Below are positions 19,393 through 28,168 of a DNA stretch of 64,000 nucleotides, piece by piece. The position numbers and the translations under genes were made by a program. How positions within the stretch are numbered: the first letter of the stretch is position 1; each line of letters opens with the position of its first letter. Location: assembly GCA_030740155.1 (NCBI GenBank), contig JASLXV010000025.1, forward strand, positions 1 through 64,000, read 5' to 3'. Below the pieces are notes generated by a model that worked only from the letters and a program-made list of their open reading frames with translations, was not told where the DNA came from and ran no database searches. Source of the DNA: Dehalococcoidia bacterium. Its GTDB lineage: Bacteria > Chloroflexota > Dehalococcoidia > Lucifugimonadales > UBA3495.

Positions 19393-20610
19393 CTACCTCC
19401 GCATGATGAGGGCGCTGCCGACGGCCGGAGTGCCCCAACCCATATTCATGCTGATCTCGGCGTCCTTCACCTGGCGGCATTTGCCTTCGGAGTAGTCGTA
19501 GGTGTGTACTCCGTCCTGACTCTGGAGGCAGTAGTCGTCCACCGTTCCCCGGAGTTGGCGGACGTTCTCAATGACCATGTTCATCCCGTGGGTGTATCCC
19601 TCGCAAAGGTGGCCGCCGCTGGTGTTGTTGGGCCGCTTGCCGCCCAAGTTGATGACGCCGCTGGAAACGAACTCGCCACCCTCTCCCTTCTTGCACCAGC
19701 CGTAGTCCTCGAACTGAAGCAAGGCGGTGTAGGTGAAGGCGTCGTAGCAGCCGGTCACGTCCACGTCGTCGTGGGTGATCCCGGCCAGCTCGAAGACCCG
19801 GGGGCCGACGTAGTAGCCCGCCACTCTGCTGATGGGGCCGTGCTGGTAATGGAAGTCGCCTCCCGGCTTGGTGCCCCGGCCCTGAACGCCCAGGATGTGA
19901 ACAGGCCGCTTGCGGAGGTCCTTGGCCCGGTCCGCCGACGTGACGATGATGCAGGTGGCGTTGTCGGTCTCCAGGCAGCAGTCCAGCAGGTGGGCGCAGG
20001 GCCGGATGATCCAGCGGGAGTTGAGCACGTCTTCGACGGTCACCCGCTGCTTCATGATCGCCTTGGGGTTGTTGCTGGCGTGGTTGCTGTGGGCCGCCTT
20101 GATGTGGGCCAGTTGCTCGCCGGTAATGCCGTACTCCATCATGTGCCGGACGAAGGTAAAGCCGAAACGCTGGACCGGGCTGATCATGCCGTAGGGGCGG
20201 ATCTCGACGTCGGACCCGCTGACCGGTGCCGCCGCCCGTGACCCGGTGCCGCCGACGCGGACTTGGGAGTAGCCGTTCATCGACCGGAAGATGGCCACGG
20301 TCTGGCACATCCCCACCTCGATGGCGCCCATGGCCAGGCCGATCAGCGCCTCGGAGCTGGAGCCGCCGCCCGAGCAATCCATGTAGAAGTTGAGGCGAAG
20401 CCCCAGGTCGTACATCACCGAGGTGCTGGGGATCGAGTCCCCGCTGTGGTAGCTCAGCATCCCGTCAACGTCCTGGGGCGAGAGCCCGGCGTCGTTCATG
20501 GCGTTGCGGATGGCTTCCGTGGCCATGGCCCGCGTGGTGCGCCCTGAGCCGCGGCTGTACTCGGTCTCGCCGACGCCGACGATGCAGTACTTGCGTCTCA
20601 TATCGCTCAA
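19393..20610 (-). CDS. Thiolase-fold protein (SCP2/Ltp2-like, probable aldolase)
   Basis: IVGVGET, GGGSS (no nucleophile Cys), YDAFT and NTSGGHLCEGYTHG motifs. Confidence 0.85.
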   Translation of the reverse strand: MSDMRRKYCIVGVGETEYSRGSGRTTRAMATEAIRNAMNDAGLSPQDVDGMLSYHSGDSIPSTSVMYDLGLRLNFYMDCSGGGSSSEALIGLAMGAIEVGMCQTVAIFRSMNGYSQVRVGGTGSRAAAPVSGSDVEIRPYGMISPVQRFGFTFVRHMMEYGITGEQLAHIKAAHSNHASNNPKAIMKQRVTVEDVLNSRWIIRPCAHLLDCCLETDNATCIIVTSADRAKDLRKRPVHILGVQGRGTKPGGDFHYQHGPISRVAGYYVGPRVFELAGITHDDVDVTGCYDAFTYTALLQFEDYGWCKKGEGGEFVSSGVINLGGKRPNNTSGGHLCEGYTHGMNMVIENVRQLRGTVDDYCLQSQDGVHTYDYSEGKCRQVKDAEISMNMGWGTPAVGSALIMRR

Positions 20611-20823: not shown

Positions 20824-22110
20824 CTAAATCACGTTCCACCGGGGGTGGTGAGCCGCCTCGGCCTTGAGGTGGTCGACGATCCAGTCCCGCACCGGCTCCG
20901 CCAGGTAGAAAGTGGGCCGCAGCAAATCTCCTTCATCGGAGATCAGTCCCTCTTCCTGGGCCTGGGCTGCTATCAGGGAGCCGGGCAGCATGCGGACCCC
21001 AACCCTCAGGTTGGCGACCGCCGGGTTAACGGACCGCAAAAAAGCCAACTTCTCCTCCACGGTTTCTCGGGTCTCTCCTGGTTCGCCGAAAATCTGGGCC
21101 ATGGTGTAGTGAAGGTTCCCTTCCTCGCAGGTGTGGCAGACTTCCCGAAGGAGGTTCAGGTGCTTGCCCATTGCGGCCCCTTCGTGGCTGTCGCCGCCGG
21201 TCCCTCCCATGACCACCAGGGCGCAACCAGCCTGTTTCATCAGACCTATCAACTCCGAATCGCAGGTGTGAGGGGCAAAGCCCGTGTTCCAGTGGAGCTT
21301 CAGGCCGGCCTCGATGAGGGCATGGCAGAAAGATTTGGCGTGGGCCAAGGGGAGGTTGAACCCGTTGTCGATGAAGAAAATCTTGCGCAGCCCCAGGCGT
21401 TGCTCCAGATCTTTGACTTCCGCCACCACTTCGCTGATGGGTCGGATAACCCGCCAGGCGCCCTTCTCCTGGGCCGCCGGGGTGCCTGCGGAATTGTAAT
21501 GGCCCAGCTTGGTCAGCACCCCGATGCCAAACCCGGCTTGGCGGTACTTGGCCAGGTCCAGGTCTTCTAGGCGCGGGGGCTTGCTGAAACCGGAAGAGGA
21601 GCGCACGCCGTTGAAGGTGATCTCTCCGTTTTCCCGGTAGACCAGGCCGGGCAGGTCCTGGTAGGCTTCCGAGGCCTCCAGCCGGCCGGCCAACTCGGCG
21701 AAAGTCTCCCCGGCGTCGCCGACGATGCCCAGGTCCGGCTCAATGAAAGCGAAGCACTCCTTGGGCAGCACGCTGAATGCTGGGCCGCCGCAGATAATCG
21801 TCGCCTGGGTGACGGTCCGAATCCGTTCGGTGACCTCTTTGGCCACCGGCAGAATCCATTGGGGGTCCAGATAGCTTCCGTTGTCCAGGTTGCGAATCGA
21901 GAGCCCCACCACGTCAGGCTGGAACTCTTTCACCGTGGCCTCCACGTCGGCCAGATAGTTGTCGGAGAACATCAGGTCCAGCACCCTGGTGGAATGGCGG
22001 TCGGGGTCCAGGTGGCCGGCCACGTACGCCAGGCCGATGGGAAGTGGTTTCGCTTCCAGGCGGCTCATATACCGGCCGTGCCGGTTGGTTGCGATCAGCA
22101 GGACTCGCAT
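20824..22110 (-). CDS. Cobalamin-binding radical-SAM-like protein lacking CxxxCxxC
   Basis: B12-binding N-domain (PIGLAYVA, PDVVGLSIRN, GGPAFS) and barrel motifs (FFIDNGFN, GEPGETRET); TKLGHYNSAG stands where the cysteine triad should be. Confidence 0.8.
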   Translation of the reverse strand: MRVLLIATNRHGRYMSRLEAKPLPIGLAYVAGHLDPDRHSTRVLDLMFSDNYLADVEATVKEFQPDVVGLSIRNLDNGSYLDPQWILPVAKEVTERIRTVTQATIICGGPAFSVLPKECFAFIEPDLGIVGDAGETFAELAGRLEASEAYQDLPGLVYRENGEITFNGVRSSSGFSKPPRLEDLDLAKYRQAGFGIGVLTKLGHYNSAGTPAAQEKGAWRVIRPISEVVAEVKDLEQRLGLRKIFFIDNGFNLPLAHAKSFCHALIEAGLKLHWNTGFAPHTCDSELIGLMKQAGCALVVMGGTGGDSHEGAAMGKHLNLLREVCHTCEEGNLHYTMAQIFGEPGETRETVEEKLAFLRSVNPAVANLRVGVRMLPGSLIAAQAQEEGLISDEGDLLRPTFYLAEPVRDWIVDHLKAEAAHHPRWNVI

Positions 22111-22190
22111 ATCCCTCACCGATTAGAGGCTGGAGCCAAAACGCCATCATTATCGCCGATGGTTGGATATTTGACAAACGGGGCGCGTGC

Positions 22191-22573: not shown

Positions 22574-23950
22574 ATGAGTGATGTTTCCCAAGAGCGAGAG
22601 GCGAAGGCTGAGCCCGAGGCGATGGGAAAGCCCCGCCCCCTGAACGGCATTAGGGTCATTGACTTTACCTGGGTCCGGGCCGGCCCCTGGGCAACCCGGT
22701 GGCTTGCCTCCATGGGCGCGGACGTGATCAAGGTCGAGTGGCCCAAGAACCTGGACATCCTGCGCCAAAACCGTTTCACCGTCCCCCGCGGGGTCGAACC
22801 CGGCCCCAACTCCACCGGCCAGTTCGCCGATACCAACGTCAACAAACGCGGCATCACCATCAACGTGCGCTCCCCCAAGGGACTGGAGTTGATCCAGCGC
22901 CTCATCTCCGTCTCCGACATCGTGATAGAGAATTTTAGCTCCCGGATCATGCAGCGATTTGGCCTGGGCTACGAGGAATTGAAGAAGCTCAAACCGGATA
23001 TTGTCTACGTGTCCATGGCCGGCTTCGGCCAGACGGGCCCGCAGCACGGTTACGGCACCATGGGACCCTCGGCCCAAGCACTCTCGGGTTTGACCTTTCT
23101 CTCCGGGCTGCCCGGCAAGCCGCCGGCGGGTTGGGGCTGGTCCTACCTCGACGATACGGGCGGCATGTACGGCGCCATGTGCGCCCTCACCGCCCTGAGG
23201 CACCGCAACGCCACGGGCCAGGGCCAGCACGTGGACCTGGCTCAGATGATAGTCGGGGTTACCCTGACCGGGTCCGCCTTCCTGGACCGCACGGTTAACG
23301 GCCGAGAATCCAGACGGAAAGGGTATCCTCCCGGCAACCGGACCGTCTGGCCGGGCGCGTCTAGCGTCAACAACTACCGCGGCCCCACCGTGGCGCCCCA
23401 CAACGCCTACCGCACCAAGGGTGGCGGCTACAACGACTGGTGCGCTATCGTTTGCGGCTCCGACCAGGAATGGCAGAGCCTGGTCCGGGTGATGGGTAGT
23501 CCCGGCTGGGCCACCGATGCGAAGCTTGACGAATTACCGGGGCGCATCGAACACCAGGAAGAGATGGACCAGGCCATCGAGAGGTGGACCCAAACCCTTG
23601 AGAAGTACGAGCTGATGGAAAAATGCCAGGCGGCGGGGGTCCGGGCCATGCCGGTGCAAAGCTCCGAAGACCGGGTGGAGCATGACCCCCAGCTTCGGGC
23701 TCGCCACGCTTACACGAAGATGGACCACCCTACCCTGGGACCCTGGAAATTTCAGAACGCCCCCTTCGACCTCTCCAAGTCACCGGCGGAAGTGTTCCGC
23801 CCGCCGCCGCTTATCGGCCAGCACAACCGGGAAGTATTCGAAGGGTTGCTGGGGCTCTCCCTCGAGGAAGTGCGGGAGGCCTACGACGACGGCACCTTCT
23901 GGCCCTCGGATATGCCAACGTACCCCTATGTTCAGAAGGCACTGCGGTGA
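22574..23950 (+). CDS. Family III (CaiB/BaiF) CoA-transferase, Asp-containing subunit
   Basis: RVIDFT..AGP, GADVIKVE, NKRGIT, ENFS, GFGQTGP and YLDDTGG motifs. Confidence 0.93.
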   Translation: MSDVSQEREAKAEPEAMGKPRPLNGIRVIDFTWVRAGPWATRWLASMGADVIKVEWPKNLDILRQNRFTVPRGVEPGPNSTGQFADTNVNKRGITINVRSPKGLELIQRLISVSDIVIENFSSRIMQRFGLGYEELKKLKPDIVYVSMAGFGQTGPQHGYGTMGPSAQALSGLTFLSGLPGKPPAGWGWSYLDDTGGMYGAMCALTALRHRNATGQGQHVDLAQMIVGVTLTGSAFLDRTVNGRESRRKGYPPGNRTVWPGASSVNNYRGPTVAPHNAYRTKGGGYNDWCAIVCGSDQEWQSLVRVMGSPGWATDAKLDELPGRIEHQEEMDQAIERWTQTLEKYELMEKCQAAGVRAMPVQSSEDRVEHDPQLRARHAYTKMDHPTLGPWKFQNAPFDLSKSPAEVFRPPPLIGQHNREVFEGLLGLSLEEVREAYDDGTFWPSDMPTYPYVQKALR

Positions 23951-25221
23951 CCGGCGGTACTCAGGCGGACCCCGGCGTCACTGCTGCCGGCCCCCTTTCC
24001 GGCTTGCGGGTGCTGGAGTTGGCCGACGAGAAGGGTCAGTTCTGCGGCAAGCTGATGGCCGACCTGGGGGCAGACGTGATCAAGGTCGAGCCTCCCGGCG
24101 GGCAGCACACCCGGTCGGTCGGTCCCTTCCTGGACGACATACCGCACCGGGAGCGCAGTCTCTCCTTCTGGCACTACAACACCTCCAAACGGGGCATCAC
24201 CCTGGACCTGGAAAGCCCCGGCGGCAGGAGCATTTTCCGCCGCTTGGTTCCCAGCATTGACATAATACTGGAGACGCATCCGCCGGGGTACCTTCCATCT
24301 TTGGGGCTCGGCTACGATGAGTTGGCATCCCTGAACCCCGGCCTCATCATGTGCTCCCTGACGCCCTTTGGGCAGGTGGGGCCGTGGCGGGACTACGCCA
24401 CCTCCGACTTGCTCCACCTGGCGGCGGGAGGCCAGATGGCGTCTTGTGGTTATGACCAGGAGGACGTGGCCGACGCTCCTCCCCTCGGGCCGGGAGGCGG
24501 CAACGCCTGGCACATCGCCAGCCACTACGCCTACATGGGTATCCTGGCGGCCCTCTACTACCGGGACATGTCCGGAGAAGGGCAGTATATCGACGCGTCG
24601 GTCCACGAGGCCTGCGCCTTGACCACCGAGGGAGCTATCGCCATCTACATCTCCACCGGCGAGGTGGTGCAGCGTCACACGGGGCGGGCCGCGGCGCCCG
24701 GTAAAACGCCCGCCACCCAGTTGCCGACGGGAGACGGGGGATGGGTCAACACCACCCGCTCGGGGAGTACGCCGCCCCGGCTGCGCCAGATGGCAGAGTG
24801 GATGGACGGCTATGGCCTGGCTCAGGACCTGCTGGACGAGACGTACAGGACCGTCCAGGGAATCGAGGACAACGCCGCCCATGTCAGCCAGGTGACGGCT
24901 GAGTTCTTCGCTCAACTCACTCAGGAGGAGCTGTGGCATGGGGGGCAGCAGCGAGACCTGCCCTGGGGCGCGATTCGGACCATGGACGAGATCGTGGACG
25001 ACCCCCACCTGGCGGACCGGGGGTTTTTCGTGGACGTGGAGCACCCGGAGCTAGAGCGGAGCTTCGTCTACCCAGGTTCGGCGGCCATCTACAACGGATC
25101 GCCCTGGCGAATCTCGCGCCGGGCGCCGCTGATCGGTGAACATAACCTGGAGGTCCTTTGCGGCGAACTGGGTATGAGCCGGGAGGAGTTGACGCTGCTG
25201 GCTGAATCGGGAATAATCTAG
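23947..25221 (+). CDS. Family III CoA-transferase, subunit lacking the catalytic Asp
   Basis: LADEKGQFCG, GADVIKVEPPGG, NTSKRGIT and APLIGEHN motifs; AWHIASH at the Asp position. Confidence 0.9.
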   Translation: MTGGTQADPGVTAAGPLSGLRVLELADEKGQFCGKLMADLGADVIKVEPPGGQHTRSVGPFLDDIPHRERSLSFWHYNTSKRGITLDLESPGGRSIFRRLVPSIDIILETHPPGYLPSLGLGYDELASLNPGLIMCSLTPFGQVGPWRDYATSDLLHLAAGGQMASCGYDQEDVADAPPLGPGGGNAWHIASHYAYMGILAALYYRDMSGEGQYIDASVHEACALTTEGAIAIYISTGEVVQRHTGRAAAPGKTPATQLPTGDGGWVNTTRSGSTPPRLRQMAEWMDGYGLAQDLLDETYRTVQGIEDNAAHVSQVTAEFFAQLTQEELWHGGQQRDLPWGAIRTMDEIVDDPHLADRGFFVDVEHPELERSFVYPGSAAIYNGSPWRISRRAPLIGEHNLEVLCGELGMSREELTLLAESGII

Positions 25222-25443
25222 GCGTCGAGAGGCCGGGTCAATCGGCGGGTCGACAGCACCTTTCCAAACTCGTCGAAGGAGTTACCGCGAGCCGGTGAAC
25301 GGTCTTCGTCACGGCGGCTGGGCTGGCCAGTCCAGCGGGCCGGCCATGGGGCGCCCCGGAATTGGGGTTGGCCCACCGAAGAACGGGTTTCGCTGGAGCG
25401 CGGCCTTTGAGATAGTTACTAATCAACAAGGAGGTGTCCTTTT

Positions 25444-26625
25444 ATGAGCTTGAGAGCCAAAGCAGCCATAGTGGGCTTCGGCGAGGTGCCTACCCGGAGG
25501 ACCTATCCGGGCAGATCCACCAACTCCCTTCTAGCCGAGTCGATCCGAATGGCAATAGCCGACGCCGGGCTGGTCAAGGGGCAGATCGACGGTCTGATCA
25601 CCCGGGGGACCGACGTCAGTGAGGTGGACCTGGCCGAGTACATGGGTCTGCCGGTGGAATTTTGCATGGGCATTACCCAGCACGGCGCCAGCGGCGCCCA
25701 CGCGGTGGCCATGGCCGCGTCGGCCGTCGCCTCCGGGCTGGCCAACACCATCGTGTGTGTTTTCGGCGGCACCAGGGACCCAGACCTGGGCGGGTTGGCC
25801 CCAGGATCCTACCATTCAGCGCCGGCGGCTACCAAGACCAGCGAGTGGGAGACTCCCTTCGGGATGGCTCCCGGCGCCTGCACGGGCTACGGCCTGATGA
25901 TGCGGCGCCACATGTACGAGTTTGGCACCACGGCGGAGCAGTTTGCCCAAATGGCGGTGAACCAGCGCTTCAACGCGCTGAAAAACCCCAACGCGGCCTT
26001 CGCCGGGCAGGCTATCACGGTGCAGGATGTCCTCAACTCCAGATTCGTCAACGACCCGCTGCACCTGTTCGAGTGCGTCATGCCCTGTGCTGGAGCGGCG
26101 GCCTGTATCGTCACCTCGGCCGAGCGGGCCAGGTCGCTGCCCAATCCCCCGGTTTACATTCTGGGGGCGGCGGCGAGCGCCAGCGACCACGACCTGATCT
26201 GGCAGGCAGAAAGGATTACCACCACTTCGGTGGCCCTCTCCTCTCGGCGCGCCTTCGAAATGGCGGGATACGGCCCCAAGGATATTGAGTTCGCCGAATT
26301 CTATGATTGATACACGATCCTTGAGGCCGTGTGCCTCGAAGACGCGGGCTTTTGTGAAAAGGGGGAAATCGGTCCCTTCTTTGAGTCGGTGGATACAACG
26401 TACAAAGGGAGCTTCCCCATCAATACCGACGGCGGCCAGCTATCTGCCGGACAACCGGTGGGAGGCGGCGGAGGCTTCAGGCACGTCATCGAGTCTGTCC
26501 GCCAGCTGATGGGCCGGGGTGACGAGAGGCAGGTGGCCAAGCACGACCTCTCCATGGTGAATGGTTGAGGCGGCACCGCGAGCGTGATGTGCACGCTCAT
26601 ACTCGGCACTGAAGCTGCGAAGTAG
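25444..26625 (+). CDS. Thiolase-fold selenoprotein candidate, 393 aa with two Sec (U289, U375)
   Basis: One frame continues through TGA 26308-26310 (FYD-U-YTI) and TGA 26566-26568 (VNG-U-GGT) to TAG 26623-26625. Thiolase motifs (LEDAGFC.KGE, INTDGGQLS, RQLMG, TLILG) follow the TGAs, and a SECIS-like hairpin follows each. Confidence 0.85.
26321..26340 (+). promoter_or_regulatory. Putative SECIS element for UGA 26308
   Basis: TTGAGGC-CGTGT-GCCTCGAA; the loop begins 17 nt after the UGA. Confidence 0.7.
26580..26598 (+). promoter_or_regulatory. Putative SECIS element for UGA 26566
   Basis: Perfect 7-bp stem GAGCGTG-ATGTG-CACGCTC; loop 18 nt after the UGA. Confidence 0.7.
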
Positions 26626-26636
26626 GGAAGCTGAAA

Positions 26637-27065
26637 ATGACTACAGAATACAAAAAACCTCTACCGAGGCCAATCCACGCGAAGCTCACCGCACCGTTCT
26701 GGGAGGGAGCCAAGCGGCATGAACTGATGATGCCCCGCTGCACCAATTGCGACAAGTTCCACTTCTATCCCAGGGAGGAATGTCCCCGGTGTTTCTCCCA
26801 GAAGATCGAATGGGCGAAGGTCAGCGGCCGGGGCAGGCTGCACTCGTACACCATCATCCACCAGACGGCCCAGCGTGTCTTCCAAGACGATGCTCCCCAC
26901 GTGTATGCCATTGTCCAGCTGGATGAAGGCCCCAGGATGATCTCCAACGTGGTGGATTCCAACATGAAGCCCATGCTGGAGGGGCTGGAGATGGACATGC
27001 CGGTGGTGGCGGTGTACGACGACGTCACTCCTGAAGTCACCCTCGTCAAGTTCGTAAAGGCCTAG
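26637..27065 (+). CDS. DUF35 Zn-ribbon/OB-fold protein
   Basis: PFWEG, CTNC...CPRC, SGRGRLHSYT and VQLDEGPR motifs; starts 11 nt after the extended thiolase stop. Confidence 0.92.
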   Translation: MTTEYKKPLPRPIHAKLTAPFWEGAKRHELMMPRCTNCDKFHFYPREECPRCFSQKIEWAKVSGRGRLHSYTIIHQTAQRVFQDDAPHVYAIVQLDEGPRMISNVVDSNMKPMLEGLEMDMPVVAVYDDVTPEVTLVKFVKA

Positions 27066-27117: not shown

Positions 27118-27173
27118 GTGAGCTTGCCGAAGGGCGCGAGGTCGGTGGTTCGACAAGCTCACCACGAACGGTG
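27118..27173. repeat. REP-like palindromic repeat
   Basis: GTGAGCTTGCCGAA / TTCGACAAGCTCAC inverted pair; 22 nt identical to 1071-1092. Confidence 0.75.
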
Positions 27174-27472: not shown

Positions 27473-28168
27473 ATGCCCTACGATGAACTTGCGGGACTGC
27501 TGGAGAGGCGGCTGCAACTGCAGTTTCAGCCCATTGCCATGACCTTTGTGCAGGAGCAGCCCCCGGAGATACCCAGAACGGGGATGGTGCTACCGTCTAG
27601 CTGTTCCTTCTGGCGGCAGGCGGAAACCGAGGTTTTCTTTGCCGCGGCAGAGGACCACTACCGCTGTCCCCTGGGCGCCATGGTCATGGGGTTTCCCTTG
27701 CCCGAGCAGCAGATGAAGGAGCTGATGGAAGAGGTGGGGCAGATGTGCGCCGCTTCCTATGTCCGGGAAGAGGAGGTGGAGCACGTTCCCAAGAACGAAA
27801 ATCCTTCCGCCGGCATCGTCTACGGGCCTTTGGGGCGCTTCCCTCTGGAGCCCGACGCCGTCCTCCTCTGGCTCACACCGCAGCAGGCAATGGTCATGAA
27901 CGAGGCCTGTGGACTCACTAACTGGGCCGAGCAAGCCGATGGTGTGTTTGGCCGCCCCGGCTGTTCCGCCATTCCCCTAGCCCTGTCCAAGGGGAAGCCC
28001 TCCCAATCCTGGGGGTGTGTTGGTATGCGCCTCAACACCGACATCCCCGGCGAGGTGTTCCTCATGGCGATTCCCGGGACCCGGCTGCAGAGCCTGGAAG
28101 TGGACCTGATATTCACCACGGAAGTGCACCAGAGGATGAAGGATTACTACTTGGCCCGGACCGGGTAG
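27473..28168 (+). CDS. DUF169 family protein
   Basis: Spaced Cys pattern (SSCSFW, CPLG, PGC, SWGCVGMR) and YGPL..FPLEPDAV. Confidence 0.75.
   Translation: MPYDELAGLLERRLQLQFQPIAMTFVQEQPPEIPRTGMVLPSSCSFWRQAETEVFFAAAEDHYRCPLGAMVMGFPLPEQQMKELMEEVGQMCAASYVREEEVEHVPKNENPSAGIVYGPLGRFPLEPDAVLLWLTPQQAMVMNEACGLTNWAEQADGVFGRPGCSAIPLALSKGKPSQSWGCVGMRLNTDIPGEVFLMAIPGTRLQSLEVDLIFTTEVHQRMKDYYLARTG

Follow-up and report, generated by a model that had tools for sequence, protein, structure and literature searches.

A thiolase-like protein paired with a DUF35 protein is a textbook combination, and homologous complexes of the two have been solved. The gene described here encodes such a thiolase-like protein and has two in-frame TGA codons: it spans positions 25444 to 26625 on the forward strand of a window of 64,000 nucleotides (the whole stretch of DNA that was analysed), namely positions 1 to 64,000 of contig JASLXV010000025.1 from the assembly GCA_030740155.1 of a marine, SAR202-type Dehalococcoidia bacterium (Chloroflexota). 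Its closest described relative, by profile and by fold, is CtSal of Comamonas testosteroni, a retro-aldolase of bile-acid side chains that works with the DUF35 protein CtShy (PDB 9MYR; PMC12329534). In CtSal, Tyr302 and Cys304 of the motif YDCY are the catalytic base and acid, and activity is lost in the variants C304A, C304S and C304H; the thiolate may be stabilised by Gln347 and Gln352, the backbone nitrogen of Gly391 and the side chain of Gln161 make up the oxyanion hole, and Gly89 stands in place of the thiolase nucleophile (PMC12329534). The second described system is the steroid C3 side-chain aldolase TcLtp2 with its DUF35 partner ChsH2 (PDB 6OK1), which likewise has the fold without the nucleophile Cys and the Tyr of a Y-D-x-F motif. 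At the Dehalococcoidia locus, SelB and tRNA-Sec very probably read both UGAs as selenocysteine (Sec, U), with a short hairpin that begins 11-12 nucleotides (nt) downstream of each UGA as the guide; on present sequence evidence the locus is likely to be an intact selenoprotein gene.

The frame at 25444-26625 is uninterrupted apart from these two codons: translation gives 393 sense-or-TGA codons followed by TAG, and the product has 393 residues if both TGAs encode Sec. A Shine-Dalgarno-like AAGGAGG (25428-25434, forward strand) was read from the sequence 9 nt 5' of the ATG. The two open reading frames 25444-26310 and 26329-26568 that are listed under genetic code table 11 are fragments of this one frame, as the initial annotation had proposed, including the length of 393 residues. 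UGA 1 (26308-26310, forward strand) is codon 289 and is part of the motif Y287-D288-U289-Y290 (site 1). UGA 2 (26566-26568, forward strand) is codon 375, in the motif N373-G374-U375-G376-G377 (site 2), two residues before the oxyanion-hole Gly (Gly391 of CtSal). The read-through product matches NCBIfam PRK06158 over residues 3-391 with 289.5 bits, below the curated cut-off of 421, and Pfam Thiolase_C_1 at residues 244-389 (1.4e-44). The AlphaFold2 (AF2) model of the read-through protein has a mean predicted local distance difference test score (pLDDT) of 88.9 and a predicted template modelling score (pTM) of 0.89.

Profile searches of the PDB matched 9myr_A (9e-123) and 6ok1_A (3e-89), and the top Foldseek matches were 9myr (1e-44, 39% identity) and 6ok1, with 4U4E also among the best solved relatives; DUF35-associated thiolases and SCP2-thiolases rank below 9MYR, 6OK1 and 4U4E in both profile and fold comparisons. 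The thiolase fold named in the initial annotation thus stands, but the nearest characterised relatives are the retro-aldolases CtSal and Ltp2. In the alignment with 9myr, in which CtSal numbering is the chain index minus 24, Tyr302 of CtSal corresponds to Y287, the catalytic Cys304 to U289, Gln347 to Q332, Gln352 to Q337, Gly89 to G81, Gly391 to G377, Thr389 to U375 and Gln161 to A145. The protein therefore shares with CtSal the Tyr base and Cys acid site of YDCY, the two Gln, the Gly for the nucleophile, the oxyanion-hole Gly and a DUF35 partner; it differs from CtSal in having predicted Sec at the positions of Cys304 and Thr389, and Ala for Gln161. Ltp2 differs in another way, with His at site 1 and a second Tyr (Tyr344) as the acid, where the present protein has Gln337, as CtSal does. 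Among the 38 aligned sequences with Sec at site 2, G81, Y287, D288, Y290, Q332, G376 and G377 are found in all 38 and Q337 in 37, the remaining sequence having an X from an N in the contig.

Compared with classical thiolases, the fold is the same but the known chemistry cannot be. When the protein was aligned with the two classical thiolases of the same genome by hhalign, YDCY aligned with NEAF, GQP with GHP, and G81 with the nucleophile Cys. Site 1 corresponds to the Cys of HDCF, which is aligned with NEAF (PMC7682436). Site 2 is in the C-beta4/C-beta5 loop; in classical thiolases this loop is home to the acid/base Cys, which precedes by two residues the Gly that contributes its NH to oxyanion hole 2 (PMC6790690). 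The hhalign alignments comprise only residues 22-353, with the site-2 loop outside, and a match to TIGR01930 was no help there either. U375 would nevertheless occupy the position of this C-x-G cysteine, because U375-G376-G377 has the same spacing and is at the same strand end in the AF2 model. The nucleophile Cys and the GHP His are replaced by Gly81 and Gln337, so that thiolytic cleavage via an acyl-Cys intermediate is not possible in the known way. The initial annotation was right about all three features: the site-1 codon at the Cys of the (H/Y)DC(F/Y) motif, seen in both the 9myr and the classical-thiolase alignments, the site-2 codon in the C-terminal G-x-G-G loop, and the missing nucleophile.

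As to family membership, a thiolase with the nucleophile Cys of CxS and the His of GHP would not have G81 and Q337, and the NCBIfam scores are under all curated cut-offs. Of the features of a Sal/Ltp2-type retro-aldolase, the Gly for the nucleophile Cys, the YDCY dyad with two Gln and the DUF35 neighbour are present and the Gln161 part of the oxyanion hole is absent; we therefore call the protein Sal-like and not a Sal. Its sequence places it, in our view, in the nucleophile-less branch of the thiolase fold that is typified by CtSal and Ltp2. By analogy to these enzymes an aldolase-type activity is slightly favoured. Next to the equivalent of Gln161, the proteins of this genus have a Cys (Cys146; 25879-25881, GACTGYG) where most relatives have Asn (GANTGYG), and this may place another thiol close to the active site.

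The genome (3.6 Mb in 108 contigs, 62.6% GC, 93.7% complete, contamination 7.65%) has TGA as the stop of 986 among 2463 open frames with 300 codons or more. Whichever of the three stop codons ends a frame, the next in-frame stop follows at the same distance, with medians of 31 (TGA), 34 (TAG) and 28.5 (TAA) codons. A genome-wide reassignment of TGA (codes 4 or 25) was rejected: TGA acts as an ordinary stop throughout the genome. The components of Sec synthesis and insertion, which the initial annotation had named as the ones to look for (selA, selB, selC and selD), are encoded: selA (548.6 bits), selB (322.8 bits, 350.1 with its C-terminal piece) and selD (376.8 bits) all score above the curated cut-offs, and tRNA-Sec was found by ARAGORN and with the Rfam model RF01852 (69.4 bits, threshold 47). 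The selD gene (C32:19124-20044, locus L013) is a selenoprotein gene as well, with an in-frame TGA at ...CAG-U-AAK... and a hairpin of 8 bp with the loop GUC from +22 after its TGA.

Both TGAs are conserved far beyond this gene. A paralog in the same genome (C64:1943-3115; locus L024:1501-2673) is 54% identical and likewise reads TGA at the two corresponding codons; a DUF35 gene of its own follows downstream, and upstream of it an enoyl-CoA hydratase gene lies on the opposite strand. Among 46 tabulated loci derived from genomes, the records of which are almost all titled Dehalococcoidia, SAR202 or Chloroflexota, site 2 is TGA in 34 and site 1 in 12, and most of the other site-1 codons encode Cys. 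In 79 metagenome loci, TGA is found at site 2 in nine and at site 1 in five: five loci combine Cys at site 1 with TGA at site 2, four have both TGAs and one partial locus has a site-1 TGA, while the remaining loci have, at site 1 and site 2 respectively, Cys and Asn (37), Cys and Thr (14), Cys and His (5), Cys and Gln (4) or rarer combinations. A survey of 301 sampled genomes of the class, with matches defined by an E-value of 1e-100 or better and TGAs counted by hand, found matches in 45 genomes, with up to four copies per genome. Of the 103 matches, 88 have at least one TGA (two TGAs in 44, one in 44), 14 have none and one has a TAG; in one family all 17 genomes have a match and carry three or four copies. 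The 16 regions that were fetched contain 20 two-TGA genes, and every one of these has its TGAs exactly at codons 289 and 375. The initial annotation had wanted TGA tabulated against Cys at the two sites, and the answer differs between them: site 1 shows Sec/Cys alternation, with Cys codons in most relatives, but site 2 essentially does not, and its homologs have Asn, Thr, Ser, His or Gln in place of Sec.

Several loci contain the gene pair in tandem: thiolase-like and DUF35 genes are repeated at L053 (4255-5352 and 5459-5986) and also in G221, G089, G181 and G063 (loci L159, L163, L161 and L150), and in several of these tandem loci two double-TGA genes stand side by side. In a large protein collection the family is mostly visible as fragments. 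Among its 120 best clusters, the last residue is 373/374 in 81 and 288 in 34, because gene callers stop at these TGAs; in the five that run on, site 1 is Cys or Pro and site 2 is Asn or Ser. One cluster that ends at site 1 (P0069; 288 residues, 70% identical) has a source named as Candidatus Entotheonella sp., which indicates either that the family extends beyond Chloroflexota or that a contig was misbinned.

The TGAs are neither peculiar to this assembly nor followed by decaying sequence, two possibilities that the initial annotation had named as fatal to its proposal. Besides the independent assemblies, contigs from independent DNA and RNA libraries of other studies cover both TGA sites with no listed difference; for the RNA libraries, which can contain DNA, the evidence consists of contigs and shows presence, not translation. 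Downstream of both TGAs the sequence is under purifying selection: per pair of sequences, 12-21 synonymous changes stand against 2-9 non-synonymous ones in the 40 codons that follow site 1, and the 15 codons that follow site 2 have 2-5 synonymous changes, with 1-4 non-synonymous changes in six of seven pairs and eight in the pair with the paralog of locus L024.

Each UGA is followed by a hairpin resembling a selenocysteine insertion sequence (SECIS), at the places where the initial annotation had seen one. Hairpin 1 (26321-26339, forward strand) has a stem of 7 bp (UUGAGGC / GCCUCGA) and the loop CGUGU and starts 11 nt after UGA 1; hairpin 2 (26580-26598, forward strand) also has 7 bp (GAGCGUG / CACGCUC), with the loop AUGUG, and starts 12 nt after UGA 2. 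Folded as single sequences they are no better than chance (z = -1.06 for hairpin 1 and -0.69 for hairpin 2; 26 and 48 of 200 shuffles, respectively, fold equally well or better), so that their weight comes from the comparison with homologs only. At site 2, 41 of 49 unique TGA forms, which use 24 distinct stems, have a perfect stem of at least 6 bp with its centre 17-23.5 nt after the codon, versus 8 of 80 unique non-TGA forms. In two register groups, 94.9% and 95.8% of the cells are paired, versus 18-60% in slid controls; both sides changed in 4 of 7 and 6 of 8 pairs, a covariation score that none of 500 shuffles reached, although the groups for these counts were picked after the sequences had been seen. 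At site 1, 90.2% of the cells are paired in 32 unique TGA forms versus 53.7% in 25 Cys forms of the same clade, and the pairing of the Cys forms is no better than in slid controls. The hairpins thus go with the TGA state and are mostly missing from non-TGA homologs, and the comparative support appears good at site 2 and moderate at site 1.

Other results weigh against Sec at both sites, or against the role proposed for it. The four hairpins that were folded singly reach z-values of only -0.7 to -1.6, not significant and ordinary for GC-rich sequence, and an Rfam scan of 26250-26680 with E-values up to 10 returned three chance-level matches and no SECIS family. At site 1, only 10 out of the 32 unique TGA forms have a perfect stem of at least 6 bp, as do 4 of 107 non-TGA forms, and the one compensatory pair there comes from a single lineage. 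Four Asn (AAC) forms from a different clade (the metagenome contigs L087, L090, L096 and L106) have a hairpin of 9-10 bp at the same distance after site 2. Since some Asn forms have the hairpin too, part of the signal could come from codon and amino-acid constraints; the hairpins of the Asn forms could be left over from an ancestral SECIS or follow simply from the Ser-Glu...Ser-Leu codons. Cys is found at site 2 in two of 150 representatives, in none of the 79 metagenome loci and in none of the non-TGA genome loci. Position 145, Gln161 in CtSal, is Ala in all 38 sequences with Sec at site 2, so that the Sal mechanism cannot be carried over unchanged. Finally, the actual insertion of Sec into the thiolase-like protein is a prediction from the sequence data.

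These points bear most directly on the idea that the UGAs are read through, but not as Sec, at one or both sites, by near-cognate decoding or by a suppressor tRNA. Site 2 would be the likelier place for this, because its homologs have Asn, Ser or Thr and almost never Cys; the hairpins are not significant singly and match no SECIS family in Rfam, and with an assembly completeness of 93.7% a further tRNA could be missing. Still, the only tRNA with a UCA anticodon that was found is tRNA-Sec, TGA is a normal stop genome-wide, site 1 shows the classical alternation of Sec and Cys at an essential catalytic Cys, and the TGAs of site 2 are followed by a position-specific hairpin with compensatory changes that most non-TGA homologs do not have. 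We consider non-Sec read-through quite unlikely. An assembly or sequencing error, or a pseudogene, would be an obvious suspicion for two in-frame stops in an assembly of the metagenome-assembled type with 108 contigs and 7.65% contamination. It is highly improbable here: both codons are TGA in dozens of independent genomes, in metagenome contigs and in a diverged paralog, the contigs of other DNA and RNA libraries are unchanged at both sites, and the selection downstream is purifying.

It is also conceivable that termination at the UGAs yields the main products, of 288 or 374 residues, and that read-through is a minor, selenium-dependent side product that serves as a regulatory switch and not for catalysis by Sec. 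Bacterial Sec insertion is generally inefficient and with two UGAs on one mRNA the losses multiply, and proteins of 288 and about 370 residues are what gene callers predict. However, the product of 288 residues would be without most of the C-terminal thiolase domain (Thiolase_C_1, 244-389), and that of 374 residues would be without the last beta-strand (381-388 in the model) and the oxyanion-hole Gly377. Selection on the codons behind each UGA is purifying, full-length homologs with Asn or Ser retain the same C-terminal segment, and we regard termination as the main outcome as unlikely. Sec at both UGAs of an intact gene agrees better with these data.

How the two Sec sites arose was examined in a FastTree tree of 103 sequences; as its root is not established, the tree does not say in which direction the changes went. 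All forms with Sec at site 2 are in one clade of 40 sequences (support 93), and an inner clade of 38 sequences (support 100) contains all but two of them. Two Asn forms (L055 and L078) are nested in the Sec clade, and site 2 requires two changes on the tree. Sec at site 1 appears in three places within the clade, corresponding to three changes. Because site-1 Sec arises at three places within the clade of site-2 Sec, Cys289/Sec375 seems to be the common state and the double-Sec form a recurrent derivative. The nested Asn forms are a further point of caution: they indicate that Sec375 may be replaceable, and thus might not be an indispensable nucleophile or redox residue. For the Gln of position 145, a relation to site 2 was looked for as well: 12 of 14 sequences with this Gln have Thr at site 2, but an analysis of independent pairs had four pairs with one informative and therefore no power.

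From the homology to CtSal and the gene neighbourhood a reaction sequence can be proposed. A carboxylic acid would be made into its CoA ester, probably by the two family III CoA-transferases encoded upstream; after hydration or oxidation elsewhere, the Sal-like enzyme and its DUF35 partner would cleave the C-C bond next to the thioester. Tyr287 would be the base that takes the proton from the beta-hydroxyl of a 3-hydroxyacyl-CoA, whereupon the C-C bond breaks; the backbone NH of Gly377 would hold the oxyanion of the acyl-CoA enolate, and residue 289 (Sec here, Cys in many relatives) would protonate the enolate. Sec375 would be at the thioester/enolate end of the substrate, because it precedes the oxyanion-hole Gly by two residues with the same spacing as the acid/base Cys of C-x-G, and would tune or add to the acid-base chemistry there. 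Conceivable roles for it are those of a second acid/base group, a nucleophile or a redox partner for residue 289. The most far-reaching proposal is a tentative and rather doubtful one: that Sec289 from the YDCY loop and Sec375 from the place of the C-x-G Cys meet in one active site for a selenium-dependent C-C chemistry on CoA esters, unlike that of any known enzyme of the thiolase superfamily, which the abundant deep-ocean SAR202 bacteria would use on refractory organic acids. This chemistry could take three forms: Sec as general acid/base in a non-redox lyase, Sec375 as a substitute nucleophile that forms a selenoester, or a Se-Se or Se-S switch made by the pair.

The DUF35 partner gene (26637-27065, forward strand; 142 residues, zf-ChsH2 and OB_ChsH2_C domains) starts 11 nt after the stop of the thiolase-like gene, the distance given in the initial annotation (stop at 26625, DUF35 start at 26637). 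Its product has a C35-x2-C38-x10-C49-x2-C52 zinc ribbon and an OB fold. A DUF35 homolog is directly downstream in 37 of the 38 loci with site-2 TGA and enough flanking sequence, and in the 38th it is a few nucleotides inside the limit set for this search. By homology, the thiolase-like protein would work with this adjacent zinc-ribbon/OB protein. The arrangement is not that of Comamonas: here the DUF35 protein stands alone and has a canonical C4 zinc ribbon, whereas the CtSal partner is a C3H1 domain fused to a hydratase. Substrate and context differ too, with CoA-transferases adjacent here and no steroid genes seen near the locus.

Directly upstream are the two genes for family III CoA-transferases (22574-23950 and 23947-25221, both on the forward strand; Pfam CoA_transf_3, 1.5e-99 and 2.4e-79), which probably share an operon with the thiolase-like gene; the same arrangement is found in locus L041, and one such gene in L072. 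Downstream, a DUF169 gene (27473-28168, forward strand; Pfam DUF169, 3.5e-25) is possibly co-transcribed, and a HerA-like gene is also present. Across the loci the other neighbours vary and include genes for enoyl-CoA hydratase, acyl-CoA dehydrogenase, Rieske/LigXa, enolase-superfamily, HMGL-like and SnoaL proteins, a variable context that fits a family of CoA-ester catabolic modules for diverse substrates. A palindromic element at 27118-27162 (GTGAGCTTG...CAAGCTCAC), downstream of the DUF35 gene, looks like a dispersed repeat of the repetitive extragenic palindromic (REP) type and may be a terminator as well; its 14-mer occurs 53 times in the genome, and at this place the depth of the contig in DNA run X13 rises abruptly to 720-1300. 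Further upstream, a thiolase-like paralog without TGA (YDAFT at site 1) adjoins a protein with a B12-binding domain (19393-20610 and 20824-22119, both on the reverse strand).

With known bacterial selenoproteins the family has in common the in-frame UGA with a downstream hairpin, the complete Sec machinery and, at site 1, the alternation of Sec and Cys at a catalytic residue. It differs in that site 2 has essentially no Cys counterpart and in that the enzyme would, by analogy, be a C-C lyase or transferase on CoA esters and not an oxidoreductase; to our knowledge, nearly all known selenoenzymes are oxidoreductases. The selenium-containing thiolase of Clostridium kluyveri described by Hartmanis and Stadtman in 1982 reportedly has its selenium in non-specific selenomethionine and not in UGA-encoded Sec. 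Thiolases were not known to the initial annotation as a selenoprotein family, and the searched literature agrees. No selenoprotein of the thiolase superfamily was found in the family table and text of the review PMC13188914 (2026), nor in the parts covered of the deep-Sep paper (PMC12013277), of BSepDB (PMC13326102, with supplement), of the GOS study (PMC2398784) and of PMC9312934 and PMC9402790. Full-text literature searches, as far as their coverage goes, turned up nothing on this family, whether for selenoproteins and thiolases, for selenocysteine with DUF35 or SAR202, or for thiolases and CoA-transferases of SAR202.

Judged by its sequences, this is a real and widespread selenoprotein family that is not described in the searched literature; it is also found in marine metagenomes and metatranscriptome libraries of several studies. 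Predicted Sec replaces the essential catalytic acid of a C-C-cleaving, aldolase-type enzyme, and a second Sec is predicted where relatives have Asn, Thr or Ser. What selenium adds to acid-base or carbanion chemistry is the question that this double-Sec combination poses. If both Sec are indeed in one active site, the thiolase superfamily would have its first selenoenzyme, and Sec would have evolved, as it rarely does, at a position that was not Cys. In 115 of the 120 listed clusters gene callers cut the protein short, at residue 288 or about 374; annotation and metabolic models of SAR202-type bacteria therefore misdescribe the enzyme, and estimates of how much selenium these abundant ocean bacteria require are probably too low.

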